From Candidatus Brocadiia bacterium (lineage in GTDB: Bacteria > Planctomycetota > Brocadiia > SM23-32), in contig JBKHIT010000090.1 of assembly GCA_046538485.1 (NCBI GenBank), positions 1-13,783 of the forward strand: a stretch of 13,783 nucleotides of DNA, written 5' to 3'. The notes under the pieces are model-generated. The model did no database searches. It was not told where the DNA came from and was given only the letters and a program-made list of their open reading frames with translations. The position numbers and the translations under genes are program-made. Positions 4,069 to 13,783 of this stretch are shown here, in pieces. The number at the start of each line of letters is the position of its first letter. Position 1 is the stretch's first letter.

Positions 4069-4095
4069 TAGCCTGCATCTTACGGATGCAGGCTA
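4069..4095. repeat. Perfect 11-bp inverted repeat (hairpin) upstream of the pyrophosphorylase gene
   Basis: TAGCCTGCATC-ttacg-GATGCAGGCTA. Confidence 0.6.
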
Positions 4096-4468
4096 TGTAA
4101 AACGGCGCATGCCGTTTAAAAACATTGTAGCGTTCGCCTCGTTGCTGATCACTGATTTTAAGTTGTCAGATTTATGCGCCGTTTGTTTTTAGCTCGGATT
4201 TTTGGCTGAGAAGGGTTGTGAACGGTGTCCAATAAAGATTCTGCCCTGACTTGACAAAAAGGGCGTCCAATTATCCGTAAAATCCGGGCTAGTGTATCTG
4301 CTTCCCCCCGCGCACTCAATCAAATGCGCCGCCCGTGTGCCAGCCCGTCCGTGTCAACTCGTGCCCCTCCGGGTGCAACGTCCGTCAGTGCTTGACAGCT
4401 ACGGCCTTCCCTCCGTAGCATACTGACCGCCCGCTGGATATTCCTCAGGACTTTTTAAAAGAAAAATT

Positions 4469-5858: not shown

Positions 5859-8800
5859 ATGAAAAAATGGATGATCTTTGCATTTGTTCTGTTTGTGTCG
5901 GTGATGACTCTGACTGCTAAAGAAGGCAGCGACAAGTGGCCTGAAGTCCTCACGATTGACAATTTTGAAGACGGCATCGAGCGGTGGAAAAACGAGGATA
6001 CAGGCAAGCTGGAATCGCTGAAGGATGCAGTGCAGGGCGAAAGAGCCATGCGGTGGACGGCGGCAGACGATGGGCTCGGCCACATCATCTTCCGGAACCT
6101 GAAACGCGAAGAGATCGACTTCAGTCAATACGATCTGCTGGTGTGCGAGGTGAAGATCGCCGGTAAGCCCATCTGGAACCTAAACCCCATCGTCCAGCAG
6201 CGCCCGGCCGTCTACGGTTTCCGGGGGCTCTACTACAGTATCGACAGACTTCATCCGTTCGGCCGGTGGTTCACGCTCTCGCAGGATCTGAGCCGATGGG
6301 AGAATGCCTGGCCGGACTCCTACAACGCCACCAATCAGGAGTTCCAATTCGAGGTGCATCAACTCGCCGGGCCCGGGTCGACCCAGATCTATCTCGATAA
6401 CATCCGGCTGATGAAGAACCCGCTCGCCCTCCGCCCTTCCTATCCCGGGAAGTGGTTGCAGCAGCCTGACGGATCGCAGTTGACAGAGTTTGCGATTCCG
6501 CTTGAAAATACCGGAGAGAAAGCTCTGACGGTCCAGACATCCGTGGCTCAGGGCGGGACGCTGGACCGGTTCAAGGTTGAACTGCCGGATCCAGTGGAGG
6601 TCTCCCCCACAGATTCTTCATCGGAGGAGGCCCGCCGGACACTCCGCATTCGGATTAAGGCACCCGCCCCGATGATCGATGAGGTTACCCCGTGGTATGG
6701 TGAGACGGCCCGGATTGCCGTGACTGCCAAAGAGGCACCCGGACTGGTCCTCTACACCGACCTGGCCGCAGGCACGAAACCGGCCCGGCTCGAGCACCCG
6801 TCCATCGTCTGCTCGCCCGAACGGATGGCGGATCTGCGGAAACGTTACTCATCCGAGGATTCCCGCAAAAAGATGAAGCGGGCGTTTCGTAACATCGCCA
6901 GGCGGGGCGAGCAGGCGCTGTCCTATAAGCCGGAGTATCCCCCCGTCGCGGCGCAGGGACGCACCAAGGACCCGATCTCGGGGAAAAGGCTGGTGGAAAT
7001 CGACGTGCCCAACCGCCCCCAGCGGGTTTATCAAGATCCATCCTCGGGGCGTTCCTATTCGGGGCCGCTCTACGATGCGGGCATGCAGGGATGGAAGCAG
7101 AAACATCTGAAGAACGCGGCCGTCACTAAATCTTTAGGACTTGCTTTCGTGGTCACGGGACGCCGGGAATTCGCCGAGAAGGCGGCGGCAATTTTGCGGC
7201 CCTATATCAAGGTTTATCCCGATCTTCCCCTCATCGCCCCCAGGCAGGGGAGTCCGGTCGGGAGCGTCACCTCCGGCACCGTACCCATCGGTAGCACTTA
7301 CATGCGGGAACGGACCTGGCTCACTTCCATGGCCATCGGTCTGGACTGCATACGCCCGGCCGGCGTGCTCTCAGCAGAAGATCTTCGGGGTCTGGCGGAA
7401 AATGTGTTCAGCCCCTCAGCCCACAATATGATGGATCACAAGGTGGGGCCGATGAATCTGCAGTGGATGATTCAATCCGCCTCGCTGATGGCGGGGCTGG
7501 CGGCGGAACTCCCCGACGTGACCGCACGGGCACTGCACGATTCTCACGGGATCGTCCGGCTGACCGAGGTGGGGTTCCTGGATGACGGCAACTGGTGGGA
7601 GAATCCCAGCTACCAGAACGTGGCGAAGATCGCCGCCTACCCGGCGCTGGTGACCGCCATCCACAATGAAATCATCCCGTGGAACGAGCGCTTCCAGACA
7701 ATCCTTAAGGCATCCTACAAGCTTTACGGTCCCGATGGACGGAGTCCAACTCTGGGAACGGGCGGATGGACCAGCTACGGGATGGATAATGCGGCAATCG
7801 CCGCTCTGGCCGAGTGGATCACCGATCCCGAACTGGCCTGGGTGGCCTACAACCGCAAACCCCGTCCCCATCGAAATATTGGTCTCCTGGCGCTGTTCCG
7901 GGATGGCAAACCGCGCGTGCCGGAGGGAAAAGCTGTCAGCCCTATCCCCGACAAAACCACACTGGCCCCGGACTACGGCGGGATCTCGCTACGCATCCCC
8001 GGAACCGATCGCTACTCCTATTTCCATTTCGGGCGTGAGCTGACGCACGGCCACCATAACAAACTCTCCATCAACGCCTACGGCAAGAAAGGGTGGTACG
8101 CTCGCAACGTCATGGGCGGCTACGGGCATAACTTCGACGATTTCCTCCAGACCAGCGCCAGCGCTTCAAGCATCATGGTCGACGGCGCGGACGCCGACCA
8201 TGACACCGGCGAGTTGCTGTTCCACGGGTCGATAGCAGGAACTGAGGTTGCGTCGGGTCGGGAGATCGGCGCATGGAAGGACGTGGAGCACGAACGGACG
8301 CTGGTCCTGACGGAATCGATGCTGATCGTGATCGATCGCTGCCTGAGCGAAAGTAAACACGTCTACGATTGGCTCCACCACACCAACCGTTGCGGGTTGA
8401 AGCTGGACAAAACAAACGTGGGCAAACCCCGCATCGAACGATTTGGCAAATCCGTGCACTACGACTCGCTCCCACCGACCGGTCGTTTCACCGACAACCG
8501 ACCCGCCCGCTGGGACCGGGAAAACGGCAGCGGGCTTCTGACGGCTTCCCTTCCGGTCGGCACTCGATACGTCACACGGATCACGCACACATATCGTAAC
8601 CACGACAGCATTCTGTGGCGGCAGACGGGCAAGACGATGCGTTTTGCCGCCGCGTTCCGGCCGCTGGGCAAAGGCGAGAGCGGAAAGGTGCAGATCGAGA
8701 GTGTGCCGGTGGTGGACGCAGCCGGAAAGAAGGTGGGGCTGGAAGATGGTCAGGCCGTGCAGGCTCGCTCCGATCGCGAGACGCTCACCGTACTGGTCAA

Positions 8801-8873
8801 CTATTCCGGCAACCGTCTCAATGCGGGTCCCGTAAGCACAAAACAGCGCGTGGGCGTGAAGAGAGAAAAATAG
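5859..8873 (+). CDS. Secreted heparinase II/III-like / alginate-lyase-like polysaccharide lyase with N-terminal carbohydrate-binding-like domain
   Basis: Signal peptide MKKWMIFAFVLFVSVMTLTA. The N-terminal beta-sandwich-like domain runs IDNFED...IYLDNIRL. The helical domain has AAAILRPY and DDGNWWE. The C-terminal Hepar_II_III-like region has HGHHNKLSI...IMVDG. SD GAGGA is present. Confidence 0.75.
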   Translation: MKKWMIFAFVLFVSVMTLTAKEGSDKWPEVLTIDNFEDGIERWKNEDTGKLESLKDAVQGERAMRWTAADDGLGHIIFRNLKREEIDFSQYDLLVCEVKIAGKPIWNLNPIVQQRPAVYGFRGLYYSIDRLHPFGRWFTLSQDLSRWENAWPDSYNATNQEFQFEVHQLAGPGSTQIYLDNIRLMKNPLALRPSYPGKWLQQPDGSQLTEFAIPLENTGEKALTVQTSVAQGGTLDRFKVELPDPVEVSPTDSSSEEARRTLRIRIKAPAPMIDEVTPWYGETARIAVTAKEAPGLVLYTDLAAGTKPARLEHPSIVCSPERMADLRKRYSSEDSRKKMKRAFRNIARRGEQALSYKPEYPPVAAQGRTKDPISGKRLVEIDVPNRPQRVYQDPSSGRSYSGPLYDAGMQGWKQKHLKNAAVTKSLGLAFVVTGRREFAEKAAAILRPYIKVYPDLPLIAPRQGSPVGSVTSGTVPIGSTYMRERTWLTSMAIGLDCIRPAGVLSAEDLRGLAENVFSPSAHNMMDHKVGPMNLQWMIQSASLMAGLAAELPDVTARALHDSHGIVRLTEVGFLDDGNWWENPSYQNVAKIAAYPALVTAIHNEIIPWNERFQTILKASYKLYGPDGRSPTLGTGGWTSYGMDNAAIAALAEWITDPELAWVAYNRKPRPHRNIGLLALFRDGKPRVPEGKAVSPIPDKTTLAPDYGGISLRIPGTDRYSYFHFGRELTHGHHNKLSINAYGKKGWYARNVMGGYGHNFDDFLQTSASASSIMVDGADADHDTGELLFHGSIAGTEVASGREIGAWKDVEHERTLVLTESMLIVIDRCLSESKHVYDWLHHTNRCGLKLDKTNVGKPRIERFGKSVHYDSLPPTGRFTDNRPARWDRENGSGLLTASLPVGTRYVTRITHTYRNHDSILWRQTGKTMRFAAAFRPLGKGESGKVQIESVPVVDAAGKKVGLEDGQAVQARSDRETLTVLVNYSGNRLNAGPVSTKQRVGVKREK

Positions 8874-8951
8874 CCCGGGCATCGTATTGACGAGCTTTGG
8901 GACAAAGTGGAAGGTGTTTGTAGCCCGACTTTGGATCGCAGCCGGAGTGGA

Positions 8952-9147
8952 ATCTTCTTCACCTGCCGGACAAGCCGGCAGGGGCCGTTTGTTTTGGGGC
9001 ACGGATTTCTAGCCCACGAATCTGCGTCTCCTGCCACTCAAGGTGGCAGGGGGACGATAGCCTCGTACCGCCGGCGAGAGAAATTGGCCGGTTAGAGAAT
9101 GGCCGCCAGGCGCAGCCGCGACCCCCGCGGCCTCGCGCCGCGGGTGA
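8952..9147 (+). repeat. 196-bp direct repeat copy 1 (hairpins H1, H2, H3)
   Basis: Identical by eye to 10007-10202 (offset 1055). Confidence 0.95.
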
Positions 9148-9191
9148 AGGTGATTTCACCGAGCTATCTTCTTTTTGCGAAAGGAACTGCG

Positions 9192-9998
9192 TTGGTTTCA
9201 AAACCCATCTATAATGCTCACAACCTGGAATCGGCATACCAGCTCCGCTACGATTGGACCTGCTGGCCATCGCGGGAATCGACTTTCCCGCCCGACTTTG
9301 GACATTTAATAGAGCAGACCAAAGATGTCTGGGAGAACGATGGGTTGCGGTTGCTGGAAAGCAATGTGTCTTCGCAACAAACTCAGCTTCTTTTCAGCGT
9401 CACACCACAGGTCTCGGCCGTATTCTGCACGCAACGTGCCAAGGGCCGCCTTCAATATGCCGCACGGCAGGCTGGTTCTCCGATAAAGTTCAGCCGGAAG
9501 CTCTCCTTGCGCACGGTGGGTAACGCCCACAGCAAGGAAATGCTTAGATACATTGAGCGGCAGGCTCTTGACAGTCGTTATCTTGATCAGGGCTTTCGAG
9601 AAAGACTCGAGGATTTTGTCGTGGTATCCCCCGAAGTTGATCTTTCCCTCCCCACTGAAACTCGAGGTGGTCGATATTGGTATAATCTGCACCTGGTCCT
9701 TACCACTCAACAAAGATATCTCATCACTGATAGCGATCAGCTGGGCCGAATTCGCGATATGAGCTTCAAAATTGCCGACAAAAAGGGGTATAGAATTGCG
9801 TCTCTTTCGGCCATGCCGGATCATCTTCATATTGCCCTTCGCGGTAATATACAGCACAGTCCGGAGGAAGTCGCTCTCGGATTCCAGAACAATTTGGCAT
9901 ATGTGCTTGGCCAGAACGCCGTGTGGAATTACAGCTATTATGTGGGGTCTTTCAGTGAATACAATATGGAGGCCATTCGTCGTGCTTTGAGACCGTAG
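9192..9998 (+). CDS. tnpA: Tandem double-domain Y1 HUH transposase (IS200/IS605 TnpA-like)
   Basis: Domain 2: YNLHLVLTT, MPDHLH, VWNYSYYVGS. Domain 1: AKGR, LRTVG...LRYIERQ. A TTG start at 9192 follows SD AAGGA (9181-9185); the ORF-track start at 9099 lies within the hairpin block. Confidence 0.88.
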   Translation: MVSKPIYNAHNLESAYQLRYDWTCWPSRESTFPPDFGHLIEQTKDVWENDGLRLLESNVSSQQTQLLFSVTPQVSAVFCTQRAKGRLQYAARQAGSPIKFSRKLSLRTVGNAHSKEMLRYIERQALDSRYLDQGFRERLEDFVVVSPEVDLSLPTETRGGRYWYNLHLVLTTQQRYLITDSDQLGRIRDMSFKIADKKGYRIASLSAMPDHLHIALRGNIQHSPEEVALGFQNNLAYVLGQNAVWNYSYYVGSFSEYNMEAIRRALRP

Positions 9999-10006
9999 GG
10001 AGCGGG

Positions 10007-10202
10007 ATCTTCTTCACCTGCCGGACAAGCCGGCAGGGGCCGTTTGTTTTGGGGCACGGATTTCTAGCCCACGAATCTGCGTCTCCTGCCACTCAAGGTG
10101 GCAGGGGGACGATAGCCTCGTACCGCCGGCGAGAGAAATTGGCCGGTTAGAGAATGGCCGCCAGGCGCAGCCGCGACCCCCGCGGCCTCGCGCCGCGGGT
10201 GA
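10007..10202 (+). repeat. 196-bp direct repeat copy 2
   Basis: Identical to 8952-9147; starts 9 nt after the transposase stop. Confidence 0.95.
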
Positions 10203-10271
10203 GAGAGATTAGCCGGCTAGAGAATGGGCCGTCACGCGCAAGGACGACCCCCGCGGCCTCGCGCCGCGGGT
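10131..10271 (+). repeat. Two diverged tandem ~70-bp units (A 10131-10200, B 10201-10271), each ending in hairpin H3
   Basis: Both read GAGAGA.ATT.GCCGG.TAGAGAATGG...CGACCCCCGCGGCCTCGCGCCGCGGGT. About 10 differences, all 5' of the invariant hairpin segment. Confidence 0.9.
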
Positions 10272-10317
10272 GAAGGTGATTTCACCGAGCTATCTTCTTT
10301 TTGCGAAAGGAACTGCG

Positions 10318-10450
10318 TTGGTTTCAAAACCCATCTATAATGCTCACAACCTGGAATCGGCATACCAGCTCCGCTACGATTGGACCTGCTGGCCATCGCG
10401 GGAATCGACTTTCCCGCCCGACTTTGGACATTTAATAGAGCAGACCAAAG
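10318..10450 (+). pseudogene. Truncated second copy of the transposase 5' end (about 44 codons)
   Basis: Identical to 9192-9324. It diverges after CAGACCAAAG and the frame stops at 10482. Confidence 0.9.
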
Positions 10451-10474
10451 GTGGGGAACGAATCTTCGAGCTTC

Positions 10475-10483
10475 TGTTATAAT
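10475..10483 (+). promoter_or_regulatory. Putative extended -10 promoter (TGnTATAAT) upstream of the prepilin-like gene
   Basis: TGTTATAAT is a perfect consensus match; a second TATAAT lies at 10581-10586. Confidence 0.4.
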
Positions 10484-10609
10484 AAGCATGGAGAAAACAA
10501 CGGTGATCTACACGCACGAATATACGAAACACGCGTGTACGCCGAATGATACTGCGGTAGCTGTGTCCTTATTTCTGGATTATAATATTTTCTTATGAGG
10601 GAAAGGGCC

Positions 10610-11413
10610 ATGTATAAACAATCTTTCCATAGGAAACCTGGCTTCACGCTCATAGAATTGTTGGTGGTCATTGCCATCATCGCCATCCTGGCAGCGATGC
10701 TGATGCCGGCGCTGGAGCGGGCACGCGAAGGGGCTCGCCAAGCTGCGTGCAGAAGCAACCTGCACCAGATTGGACTGGGGGGTATGATGTATCAGAACGA
10801 TTACGATGGAACATTGCCCATCAGCACCGAGTGGAGTCAGTCTTTCGGCCCCAAACTATACAGTAAGGAGTATGACAACGGGGGGGGTAATGATAACATA
10901 TGGGGCGAGGAATTCGTCTACCTGGCCTGCAATTATTGCGGGGCGCAGGACTATCCGAACAAACCTCGTCCCGGCCCTATCGGCGTATTTTGGTGTCCGT
11001 CCAAGGAGTTCAAAGAAGATTTGAAGATCGCGAACCAACCGTATGTCGCGGGCAACGCCGTGGCCATTCATTATGCGCGTGATGGGCAGGCCTACCCGCT
11101 CTCACAGGATGTCCAGGACGAATCGAAGGATGTCTACGGTGGCGAATATGACACCGGTCCGGTGCGGCCGATGAAAGCAATGAGCCCCAGCAGGTGGCCG
11201 GTATTCTTCGACGAAGAGGTGTATTCAGACGACCGCTACGGAGTGGTGGACAACCATCCCGATAAACGACTGAACGCTCTGTACATGGACGGCAGCGTCG
11301 ACAGCCAGATTGGCGACGTAGGATTCCGCGGTAATAATTACGGCCAGCCGAACGGAAGTTTCGTTGTCTGGTTCCTGCCCTACGTCCGAACCGCACCCAT
11401 GCCCTACCGTTGA
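10610..11413 (+). CDS. Prepilin-type N-terminal cleavage/methylation domain protein (DUF1559 / H-X9-DG-type, PVC family)
   Basis: [32 protein letters not shown]...C.SNL.QIG, FWCPS and C-terminal [15 protein letters not shown]. Start is 10610 or 10595. Confidence 0.92.
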
Positions 11414-12120: not shown

Positions 12121-13188
12121 TCAGGTCTCTTCCACCGAATCCGGGGGCACCTCGCATGGCAGCAACCAGCGGTCGCGCTTGATGAACCGGCCGTTATGGA
12201 AGGTCTGGCCGATCGTGCCCCGTTGCTCCAGGTGATCAAAACAGCTACGCATGCATCCGCGTGATCCCTCGATACCGTAACTGCCTGCCTCGCCCCAGAT
12301 TTGCAGGCGATGGTGGCCCTCGATCACGTGGCCGGAGGGGAACCGTTTCGAAGCGCGCCAGGTCCCGGTGGACATGGTCCAGGCGAGTTTGTAGGCCGCT
12401 TCCTCGCTCATCTCCTGCTCGGTCACATCAAAATGCCAGCCGGGCAACTCCCGGTGGATGAACGGCGAGGTCATGGGATCGCCGCCGTGATAGCTCAGGG
12501 TACACCGTCCCATGTGGACGTCCCCCCATTCGTATTCGTACTCGCCGATGCGCACCGATACGGTCTTACCTTCGCGCTGATGCGGTATGGCGCAGGCCGA
12601 ACACCCCTGGACGCACGACATGCAGCGATCGCAGATCGTACCGGGCTCGATCTGAGGATCGGGCTCCAGGTCGGCGTCGGTCAAGATCGCCGCCAGGCGG
12701 ACCCGCGGCCCGAACTCGGGCGTAAGAAACACCTTGGCCCATCCCATCTCCCCCAGACCGGCGGCGACGCCGGCCAGGCGAACGTTCAGGTTGACGTCGG
12801 GCGCGACCCCGCCGGGCCGAAGCGGCTCCCCGCTGGGATCGAAGTCCTCGGGCGTCGGCGACGGATAATACGGCACGGCCTCCCAGCCAAAATCCTCGAT
12901 GTAACACGCCGTCTCGAACATGGGCGTATGGATGAACGTGGTGTTGAGCTGGCCGTGATAACCAAAATACGTGTAGCTCGGCCAATACGTGCCTTCCTCG
13001 ATCCCTCGCCACGTTCCGCGAGGAATGCGTCGAGCCACCACGACCACCGATCTGACCTCCGGGAAGATGGTGGCCGGATGCATGTTGCGAGGGGCCTCCT
13101 CAAACCGCTCGATACTGGCGATCCCGCAGAGGTCGAGCCCCTGGTCCAAAGCAAATTGTTTAATCGTCGCAGCGTCGATTGCGCTCAT
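12121..13188 (-). CDS. Epoxyqueuosine reductase (QueG)/reductive dehalogenase-like cobalamin Fe-S protein
   Basis: GLDLCGIA, AGVAAGLGEMG, LTPEFGPRVRLAAILTDA, CDRCMSCVQGC and GCMRSC. The ATG at 13188 has SD GAGGAG. Confidence 0.8.
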   Translation of the reverse strand: MSAIDAATIKQFALDQGLDLCGIASIERFEEAPRNMHPATIFPEVRSVVVVARRIPRGTWRGIEEGTYWPSYTYFGYHGQLNTTFIHTPMFETACYIEDFGWEAVPYYPSPTPEDFDPSGEPLRPGGVAPDVNLNVRLAGVAAGLGEMGWAKVFLTPEFGPRVRLAAILTDADLEPDPQIEPGTICDRCMSCVQGCSACAIPHQREGKTVSVRIGEYEYEWGDVHMGRCTLSYHGGDPMTSPFIHRELPGWHFDVTEQEMSEEAAYKLAWTMSTGTWRASKRFPSGHVIEGHHRLQIWGEAGSYGIEGSRGCMRSCFDHLEQRGTIGQTFHNGRFIKRDRWLLPCEVPPDSVEET

Positions 13189-13202
13189 CGCGCACTCCTC
13201 TC

Positions 13203-13733
13203 TCACTCAATCTCATAGTTCGTTTCGATGCGACTCTTTCCATTCTGCAGCACCCATGCGGGACGCTTGCGGAACGGATTCATGTAATCGCAGCTGAGAC
13301 GTCCGGAGCGTTCCAGGTAGTCGTAATACGACCGAATGCACACGGCGGCGATGCGGTCCGGTTTCCCGCTGGGATGCCGGTTGTTCGGCCGGGCACCGTT
13401 CTGGCATTCGGCACATTTATCAAAATCAATGCCGGCGACCGTCATGCTCTGTCCGCAGATGTCCAGCGTCTGCTCGCTCTCGGGGTCGATGGCGCCGAGC
13501 GGGCAAAAACGGGCGAACTCGGCCTTGCGCGGACAGATCTCGGGAGGACGAACCGGGGTCGGCTCCAGCTCGGCGTCGGTCAGTATGATGTAGAAGCGCT
13601 GCCGCGTGCCGAATTCCGGCGTGACAAAAGTCTGAAGGTAACCAATCTCGCCGAGTCCGGCCCGGACCGCCGCATCGTCGAAATCAAGCAGCACGTTGGG
13701 AGCGGGCTGGCCTTCACGGACCGGGCACCCTAG
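13203..13733 (-). CDS. 3' part of a second QueG-like paralog; 5' part is outside the window or cut by an insertion
   Basis: PVREGQPAPNV, AAVRAGLGEIG, VTPEFGTRQRF.IILTDAELEP and CPLGAI align with the downstream gene. The frame stays open to the window edge. Confidence 0.75.
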   Translation of the reverse strand, partial: LGCPVREGQPAPNVLLDFDDAAVRAGLGEIGYLQTFVTPEFGTRQRFYIILTDAELEPTPVRPPEICPRKAEFARFCPLGAIDPESEQTLDICGQSMTVAGIDFDKCAECQNGARPNNRHPSGKPDRIAAVCIRSYYDYLERSGRLSCDYMNPFRKRPAWVLQNGKSRIETNYEIE

Positions 13734-13783
13734 CCTGAACTTTACGGATATCCTGCCGTTATCTGGCGTAAGCAATGCTTTAG
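13730..13783. mobile_element. Possible IS terminus preceded by CTAG target site
   Basis: CTAG-CCTGAACTTTACGG. Paralog similarity is lost beyond this point, GC drops, and the 54-nt length mirrors the IS stub at the left end. Confidence 0.4.

Follow-up and report, generated by a model that had tools for sequence, protein, structure and literature searches.

The hairpins that lie between positions 8960 and 9160 of the window (the whole 13,783-nucleotide stretch of a Candidatus Brocadiia contig that was analyzed here) are probably the cognate, REP-like single-stranded DNA repeats of the Y1 protein encoded beside them. That protein belongs to an apparently undescribed, low-copy family of HUH/Y1 enzymes, in which the equivalent of an IS200 TnpA homodimer would have been fused into one chain that has just one active site, formed in trans. 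The best reading of the locus is that of a REPtron-like system which harbors a natural version of the engineered trans-only IS608 heterodimer. The enzyme family is found mainly in PVC bacteria, is low-copy, and does not satisfy the criteria that define RAYT, IS200 or class 3 TnpA-Y1 proteins. An earlier note on this DNA had offered REP-like units as one of several possibilities for the hairpins, and it is this possibility that is borne out: the units are conserved beside homologues of the gene, are dispersed throughout the genome and co-occur with the gene, and they would be bound as single-stranded DNA. Searches of an open-access library turned up no account of a tandem Y1 protein accompanied by such repeats, and text terms applied to the available part of the supplements to Quentin et al. 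2018 (PMC6006769) found no such tandem Y1 family.

The repeat unit and its arrangement at the locus

The uniform geometry of an 8-bp stem and a 5-nt loop that had been described for H1, H2 and H3 is perfect in all three (Table 1). When the segment 8960-9160, with its three perfect hairpins of at least 8 bp, was compared with 2000 dinucleotide shuffles, 1940 of these contained no such hairpin, 60 contained one and none contained two. The window holds eight perfect hairpins of this size, seven of them within 8962-10270, because the cassette is present there twice. Each unit consists, in order, of a TAGC head, an AATC-like second box, an 8-bp stem of the form CC...GG, an RCRAG loop and a GG tail; the head lies ~20 nt (18-21 nt) upstream of the stem, with the box in between, and the foot of the hairpin is either TTCA-type or GCT-type. 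The ends of the unit are sharp, with conservation extending from the T of TAGC to GGTCG (45 and 53 distinct flanks).

Table 1. Repeat units and genes in the central part of the window.
Feature	Position	Strand	Description
Unit H1	8939..8987	+	Degenerate head 8939-8942, box 8951-8955, 8-bp/5-nt hairpin 8962-8982, tail
Unit H2	9010..9055	+	TAGC head 9010-9013, box 9019-9023, hairpin 9030-9050, tail
Degenerate half unit	9064..9097	-	Head, box, 5' arm and loop kept; 3' arm replaced; at the tail-to-tail junction of plus and minus arrays
Unit H3, inverted	9118..9166	-	Hairpin 9124-9144, minus-strand TAGC head 9163-9166; 6-bp H4 in its leader
Tandem two-domain Y1 (IS200-like) gene	9192..9998	+	268 aa
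Downstream unit H1'	9996..10042	+	Hairpin 10017-10037; head overlaps the gene's TAG stop codon
Downstream unit H2'	10065..10110	+	Hairpin 10085-10105
Inverted unit	10173..10221	-	Hairpin 10179-10199; extra unit, missing from the upstream copy
Inverted unit H3'	10244..10292	-	Hairpin 10250-10270
Truncated second gene copy	10318..10453	+	First 45 codons (5' end); end of the recent local duplication

H3 is a reverse-strand copy of the unit represented by H1 and H2, a result that bears directly on the proposal of the earlier note that the hairpins form two classes (H1/H2 versus H3), with one class bound by each domain of the protein. Pairs of an H1-type followed by an H2-type hairpin do recur on five contigs of the source genome, both foot types are found in 15 of 67 loci, and dimers of the IS200/IS605 group bind one hairpin per monomer (available text of PMC3479197). 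However, the minus strand of H3 carries the head, box, stem ends, loop class and tail of H1, so that it constitutes no separate class; among the 67 loci with at least three units, 49 display a single foot type (and 15 a single stem sequence), and the arrays seen in another carrier genome, G340, are nearly homogeneous. The two-class scheme is thus highly improbable, as is its weaker form, in which alternating subtypes would occupy the two hairpin-binding faces of a pseudo-dimer. The overlapping GGTGAA/TTCACC stem (H4, 9143-9160) is present as reported, with 6 bp and a 6-nt loop, but it does not stand as an element: it is built from the leader of H3 itself, and the sister copy of H3 at 10179-10199 does not have it; it therefore looks incidental and was rejected as a conserved feature.

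The locus as a whole reads (+ +)(-) gene (+ +)(- -) stub. Its cassette is repeated 3' of the gene, with 8944-9155 corresponding to 9999-10210 (98%) and 9101-9327 to 10227-10453 (97%), and the duplicated copies are identical over 195 and 169 nt, so that the duplication must be recent. Assembly artefact is an unlikely cause: the depth of run X1 on the repeated segments is 56.6 and 50.8 versus 27-31, or approximately twofold, though X1 may itself be the source sample and no contig spans the stretch. In two runs of another study the contigs are unbroken through the start of the gene, a weak hint that those strains are without the stub. Run X2 contains a joint from which 8812-10005 is missing (depth 2, with a 38-nt side); it probably derives from another copy of the repeat and was set aside. 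Enzyme-driven copying and ordinary recombination each fit the local duplication, and repeats of at least 60 nt between the two flanks are seen in 21 of 80 homologous loci. The stop codon of the gene appears to be the TAG of the first downstream head, an arrangement that is found in 14 of 76 loci.

Two further features of the locus may be recorded here. At 9050-9097, and again at 10105-10152, a tail-to-tail junction joins a plus-strand TAGC to the loop of a truncated minus unit, possibly as the scar of a cutting and rejoining event. A 13-nt exact match connects the upstream flank (8923-8935) to the interior of the gene (9290-9302, and also 10416-10428), and may reflect either chance or the trace of an earlier rearrangement.

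The compensatory change between H1 and H2 to which the earlier note had drawn attention is a general property of the repeat, as judged by the near-perfect pairing of stems that were not selected for it: when units were chosen without regard to whether their six inner positions pair, no more than one mismatch occurred in 91 of 98 and in 94 of 101 distinct stem-loops, and one stem pair takes all four Watson-Crick forms (24, 22, 21 and 17 times). With the loop left free, its positions 2 and 5 in clade 1 are C/G in 228 rows, T/A in 32 and T/G once (49 further rows being reverse-orientation calls), and 4-nt loops are without position 1. The ‘5-nt loop’ is therefore a bulged base, followed by an extra pair that closes a two-base loop. 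Read on the pyrimidine strand these loops are CYYG or TYYA, sequences of a type that form type II DNA tetraloops with two-base loops (PMC9975016, in its available text); TTTA and TTCA loops are common in the published REPs described in the accessible part of PMC6006769. Such loops point to recognition of single-stranded DNA, probably on the pyrimidine-loop strand. Mismatches on that strand are more often G-T wobbles (14 vs 8 and 22 vs 12), a bias that mutation could likewise generate.

The same evidence weighs on the alternative that the hairpins act as RNA, either as a small structured RNA (as the earlier note also suggested) or as leaders that stabilize mRNA or dampen translation, with the association to the protein being secondary. 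The region folds better than its shuffles as RNA (z -2.42), about equally well as DNA (z -2.75); the units abut the start and the stop of the gene, and REPs are described, in the sources available, as able to act in mRNA. Against this stand the absence of any Rfam match at E up to 5 across 8800-10700, the presence of units on both strands within single intergenic regions, and a scan for promoters and terminators that gave no promoter-like or terminator-like site at the hairpins. On the purine-loop strand, moreover, G-T pairs (8 and 12) are rarer than A-C mismatches (14 and 22), and the loops follow the rule for DNA type II tetraloops. The units have neither a fixed strand relative to their neighbors nor a conserved multi-stem layout, but rather occur on both strands, in variable number and separated by unrelated, non-conserved spacers. 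A role as RNA is accordingly very unlikely.

A two-domain protein with divided catalytic motifs

The preferred reading, in which the hairpins are single-stranded DNA repeats of the adjacent protein, depends in part on the character of that protein. Its gene, which lies between the two cassettes, begins with a TTG codon preceded by a Shine-Dalgarno-like site (9181-9185) and ends with TAG. The product contains two Pfam Y1_Tnp stretches. Domain 1 harbors a catalytic-type tyrosine (codon 9549-9551, within YxxxQ) and is without HUH, with Q-x-T/L found at the position expected for that motif; domain 2 harbors the HUH (histidine codons 9822 and 9828) and is without a C-terminal tyrosine.

This division is maintained across the family. 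Motifs were counted in 192 full-length proteins kept from 270 that were fetched (73 from the 50% representatives), extending down to 24% identity. The domain-1 tyrosine is kept in 192 of 192 and the glutamine four residues later in 189; the two histidines of the domain-2 DHuH motif are kept in 190 and 191, and the last helix of that domain is without the tyrosine. Exceptions consist of an HxH near the corresponding strand of domain 1 (4/192) and a tyrosine near the C-terminus (7/192). A second tyrosine, at query position 252 in the hinge of domain 2, is kept in 185 proteins and could be another nucleophile. The two domains gave no alignment with each other in BLASTP, and a weak but positive match in profile-profile comparison (probability 68%, E 4.7e-5).

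The structure model is confident (pLDDT 93.2, pTM 0.90), and the best structural matches are to ISDra2, IS608 and Sulfolobus TnpA, involving the C-terminal half of the protein. That half matches ISDra2 and IS608 with, in the best rows, Z ~10 and rmsd 2.0-2.4 over 115-117 residues; the match to the E. coli RAYT (PDB 4ER8) is far weaker, at Z 4.9. The NCBIfam model NF033573 is matched with 58.1 bits, compared with its cut-off of 55.

In IS608 each active site is made of the HUH of one protomer and the tyrosine of the other, and an engineered heterodimer (H64A + Y127F) that is restricted to one such trans site cleaves DNA and displays no strand transfer (both from the available text of PMC3597680). 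By analogy, the domain-1 tyrosine and the domain-2 HUH probably make up one trans active site within the fused chain, and the natural protein, which matches the H64A + Y127F arrangement by sequence, appears to be that heterodimer made by evolution.

The family is coherent in length (~266 aa), with 803 matches and 228 representatives at E up to 1e-30. The best 80 genome loci come mostly from Planctomycetota, Verrucomicrobiota and Lentisphaeria, plus a small number from myxobacteria and Armatimonadetes. At ~31-35% identity to the source protein there is a second clade of 31 sequences, separated by a deep split (FastTree support 0.995), in which the motifs are divided in the same way.

Association and dispersal of the repeats

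The earlier note had named a lack of hairpins beside homologous transposases among the observations that would count against their link to the protein, and the opposite was found. Of 80 close genome homologues, 76 have a unit no more than 500 nt away, and an independent scan of the divergent clade found a hairpin with a 4-5-nt loop at 69 of 74 distinct genes. Inverted flanking repeats, a criterion by which REPtrons are defined, are present on both sides at 69 of the 80 loci (54 of the 59 with full flanks) and at 52 of the 74. The nearest unit points outward, being minus upstream in 64 of 72 cases and plus downstream in 65 of 73; the corresponding values in the divergent clade, which contributed 233 hairpins of 8 bp/5 nt, are 53 of 58 and 57 of 63. 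Head and box in that clade are as in clade 1, shifted by about one base. Units are concentrated near the gene (383 in 72,036 nt, versus 26 in 123,319 nt situated more than 1 kb away), and the similarity of units tracks that of the proteins (Spearman 0.38, compared with 0.15 for the best of 999 permutations; calculated over 71 of 80 loci, whose close kin are not independent).

Close kin keep the locus and its flanking genes, with arrays that differ, and beyond them no neighboring gene is conserved (769 ORFs from 80 loci, the largest cluster comprising 5 loci). When the 80 loci were compared in pairs, they displayed common synteny, with no clean insertion ends and no pair of filled and empty sites, and a DNA search of 31 relatives for an empty site returned only pilin-leader matches.

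Genome-wide copies, which had been proposed as a check for REP-like dispersal, were counted with a matrix built from other genomes: it detects 40 units, spread over 27 sites, in the source genome, and 0-1 when that genome is reversed as a control. These units are essentially intergenic, as 16 overlap mechanically called ORFs, 14 of these being of at most 220 aa and two of the overlaps falling in 5' extensions. The source genome has one full gene and the stub, its other Y1 matches being of unrelated types.

Within the taxonomic family the gene was found in 4 of 31 genomes. A pattern that ignores pairing matches 11 of the 31: three genomes with the gene have 21, 7 and 5 matches, a congener in which no gene was found has two, and seven others have one or two each (mostly non-palindromic), such that genuine hairpin matches occur mainly in gene-bearing genomes. 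The clade-2 gene of genome G007 has units with RCAGG loops that are invisible to this pattern, genome G034 has two hairpins with no gene found, and the five RCRAG hairpins of genome G005 do not match its clade-2 gene. In the phylum the gene is rare (3 of 301 genomes, with only eight candidates scored per genome). A first metagenome scan with one divergent protein as query gave no relative, and a second, alignment-based scan succeeded. Five other carrier genomes have 1-3 genes each and 35, 151, 0, 17 and 71 exact matches to the pattern (control 0); in long-read genomes, several of the genes are interrupted by stop codons or a frameshift.

Twenty regions of G340, seven of which share flanks, were hand-picked from the cluster listing; in 19 of them the cluster has the (minus)n(plus)m form seen around the gene, its heads pointing inward. 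Within one arm the spacers are frequently the same, and from locus to locus they are mostly different. Seven clusters in that genome (L188, L189, L192, L197, L199, L200 and L205) have the same flanks at different positions, indicating that a larger segment is itself repeated. In genome G339 a tandem array with a ~510-nt period (C8:382261-385235), made up of the repeat units beside the gene, represents a larger amplification than that of the source locus.

Relation to known systems and a possible mechanism

The source family resembles REPtrons (the RAYT/TnpA-REP proteins and their REP/BIME repeats, as in E. coli, PDB 4ER8) in many respects, when compared with the available text of PMC2817692, PMC3333891, PMC3479197, PMC8266576, PMC5581495 and PMC3733652. 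In both, a low-copy Y1 gene is flanked by inverted palindromic units, clusters without the gene are dispersed, arrays vary between relatives at a fixed locus, each enzyme has one active site, and repeat sequence tracks protein relatedness. The low copy number and stable locus expected of a REPtron are seen here as one gene plus stub, 1-3 genes in the five other genomes and flanks shared among close kin. The differences are equally clear. The stem of the source units does not have GT[AG]G as its 5' foot, and there is instead a head ~20 nt away and a second box; the clusters are polar, (minus)n(plus)m, whereas the BIMEs of REPtrons alternate; and the protein has two domains with YxxxQ in 189 of 192 members, unlike the one-domain RAYT with its YxxxNP (the class 2 motif in the available part of PMC6006769).

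With TnpA of the IS200/IS605 group (IS608, ISDra2) the protein shares the fold, the YxxxQ helix and the DHuH motif, the motifs here residing in different domains, and like the engineered IS608 heterodimer it takes its tyrosine and its HUH from different protomer-equivalents (PMC3597680, in the part available). However, each TnpA protomer of ~150 aa contains both HUH and tyrosine, giving two sites per dimer, in contrast to the one tyrosine/HUH pair in 268 aa here; the arrays of one unit on opposite strands differ from the one left and one right subterminal hairpin, on the same strand, of those elements; and clustering of the ORFs around the 80 loci gave no conserved partner gene, where members of the IS605 group have tnpB.

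These comparisons bring in the alternative that the locus is a true insertion sequence, moving by an IS200-like peel-and-paste route, in which the hairpins would be its ends, the gene-less clusters MITE-like derivatives, and two fused proteins would pair to provide two active sites. Such an explanation would accommodate the YxxxQ signature, the fold nearest to IS200/IS605 TnpA, the NF033573 score above its cut-off, the patchy distribution in family and phylum, the (minus)(plus) polarity that gene-less clusters share with the full locus, and the layout of the window, which resembles a permuted concatemer of gene and arrays. It is nonetheless improbable. Transposition in the IS200/IS605 group is strand-specific (PMC8266576), yet the units on the two sides of the gene occupy opposite strands; the flanking genes are kept in close relatives; and no plasmid or phage record was matched, although one IMG/VR contig was. 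Nor was multi-copy spread evident in these mostly fragmented assemblies, with one full copy here and 1-3 in the five other genomes (two of them in G340).

A third comparison is with TnpA-Y1 class 3 (Quentin et al. 2018), which, according to the available text of PMC6006769, is rich in planctomycete members, of YxxxQ type, flanked by atypical REP-like structures, and was proposed as an intermediate between insertion sequences and REPtrons. By the same account, class 3 proteins have a median length of 178 aa and an NHVH motif, and their hairpins are bulged, with a CnGA foot and a 4-nt loop, none of which fits the source family; unexpectedly long or fused proteins were left out of that study.

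For the preferred reading of a REPtron-like system, a mechanism can be proposed from the sequence features described above. The protein would bind the folded strand when the DNA becomes single-stranded, most likely the strand whose two-base loop is of the CYYG/TYYA kind and whose bulged base is a pyrimidine, and would nick at, or close to, the TAGC/GCTA end that is conserved ~20 nt from the stem. With a single active site, the reciprocal strand transfer of IS608 should not take place, and the enzyme would therefore either reseal the nicked end to an incoming 3'-OH or prime copying. The expected outcome would be head-to-tail arrays with a locus-specific spacing of 65-75 nt, new clusters, and local duplications such as the one observed here. 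Binding, cleavage, the cut site, the strand and the route of amplification are all presumptive, and arrays could also grow through simple slippage or recombination by RecA. A test for a guide and cut site, in which head and box would covary, found no such covariation in any IS608-like register.

As a more tentative and somewhat doubtful extension, the family may represent a second, independent origin of REP-type domestication, in which a fused and half-inactivated IS200 TnpA dimer, acting as a single-site nickase that may hold two hairpins and cut one, would amplify ~70-nt units outward from a head-to-head center by nick-and-copy and not by peel-and-paste. DNA base pairing may select the conserved TAGC/GCTA end, in which case the protein would be a compact, single-chain, retargetable ssDNA nickase/ligase. 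PMC3479197 points out that a monomer has no ready mechanism for spreading REPs. How Y1 enzymes with one active site spread such repeats is a question that this family can address: its enzyme is conserved among members as little as 24% identical, its repeat is sharply defined and can number 151 copies or more in a genome, and it offers a single-chain protein and a ~50-nt substrate for experiment. For the annotation of Planctomycetota and their relatives, it also supplies a repeat family that could be mistaken for terminators or RNAs.

Several additional hairpin families were encountered. A second subfamily, with RCAGG loops, is present on contigs C13, C57, C81, C102, C118, C131 and C141 of the source genome (G000), and its main stem type flanks the clade-2 tandem-Y1 genes of G005 and G007. 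A search of the source genome (an 88%-complete assembly) for a clade-2 gene returned only the gene in the window, and the subfamily there may consist of orphan repeats. Hairpins with the 8-bp/RCRAG geometry, a different leader, and TAGC or TAAC directly after occur on C46, C63, C109 and C127 of the source genome, some of the copies on C109 lying 300-450 nt downstream of a single-domain RAYT-type gene. Finally, a perfect 11-bp hairpin whose loop is TTACG occurs, along with copies related to it, at 4069-4095, 4272-4295 and 13727-13750 of the window; TTACG is the commonest loop among the perfect 5-nt-loop hairpins of the genome (22 of 177), and these hairpins are probably another REP-like family.

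Elsewhere in the window, 5859-8873 encodes a protein of 1004 aa whose N-terminus is signal-peptide-like and for which Pfam gave no match at E up to 0.1; it resembles an enzyme of the heparinase/alginate-lyase type. On the minus strand of 12121-13775 are two adjacent genes with similar cysteine-rich motifs, which resemble epoxyqueuosine reductase or reductive dehalogenase-like Fe-S proteins; for one of the two only, a sub-threshold Fer4_9 match was obtained.
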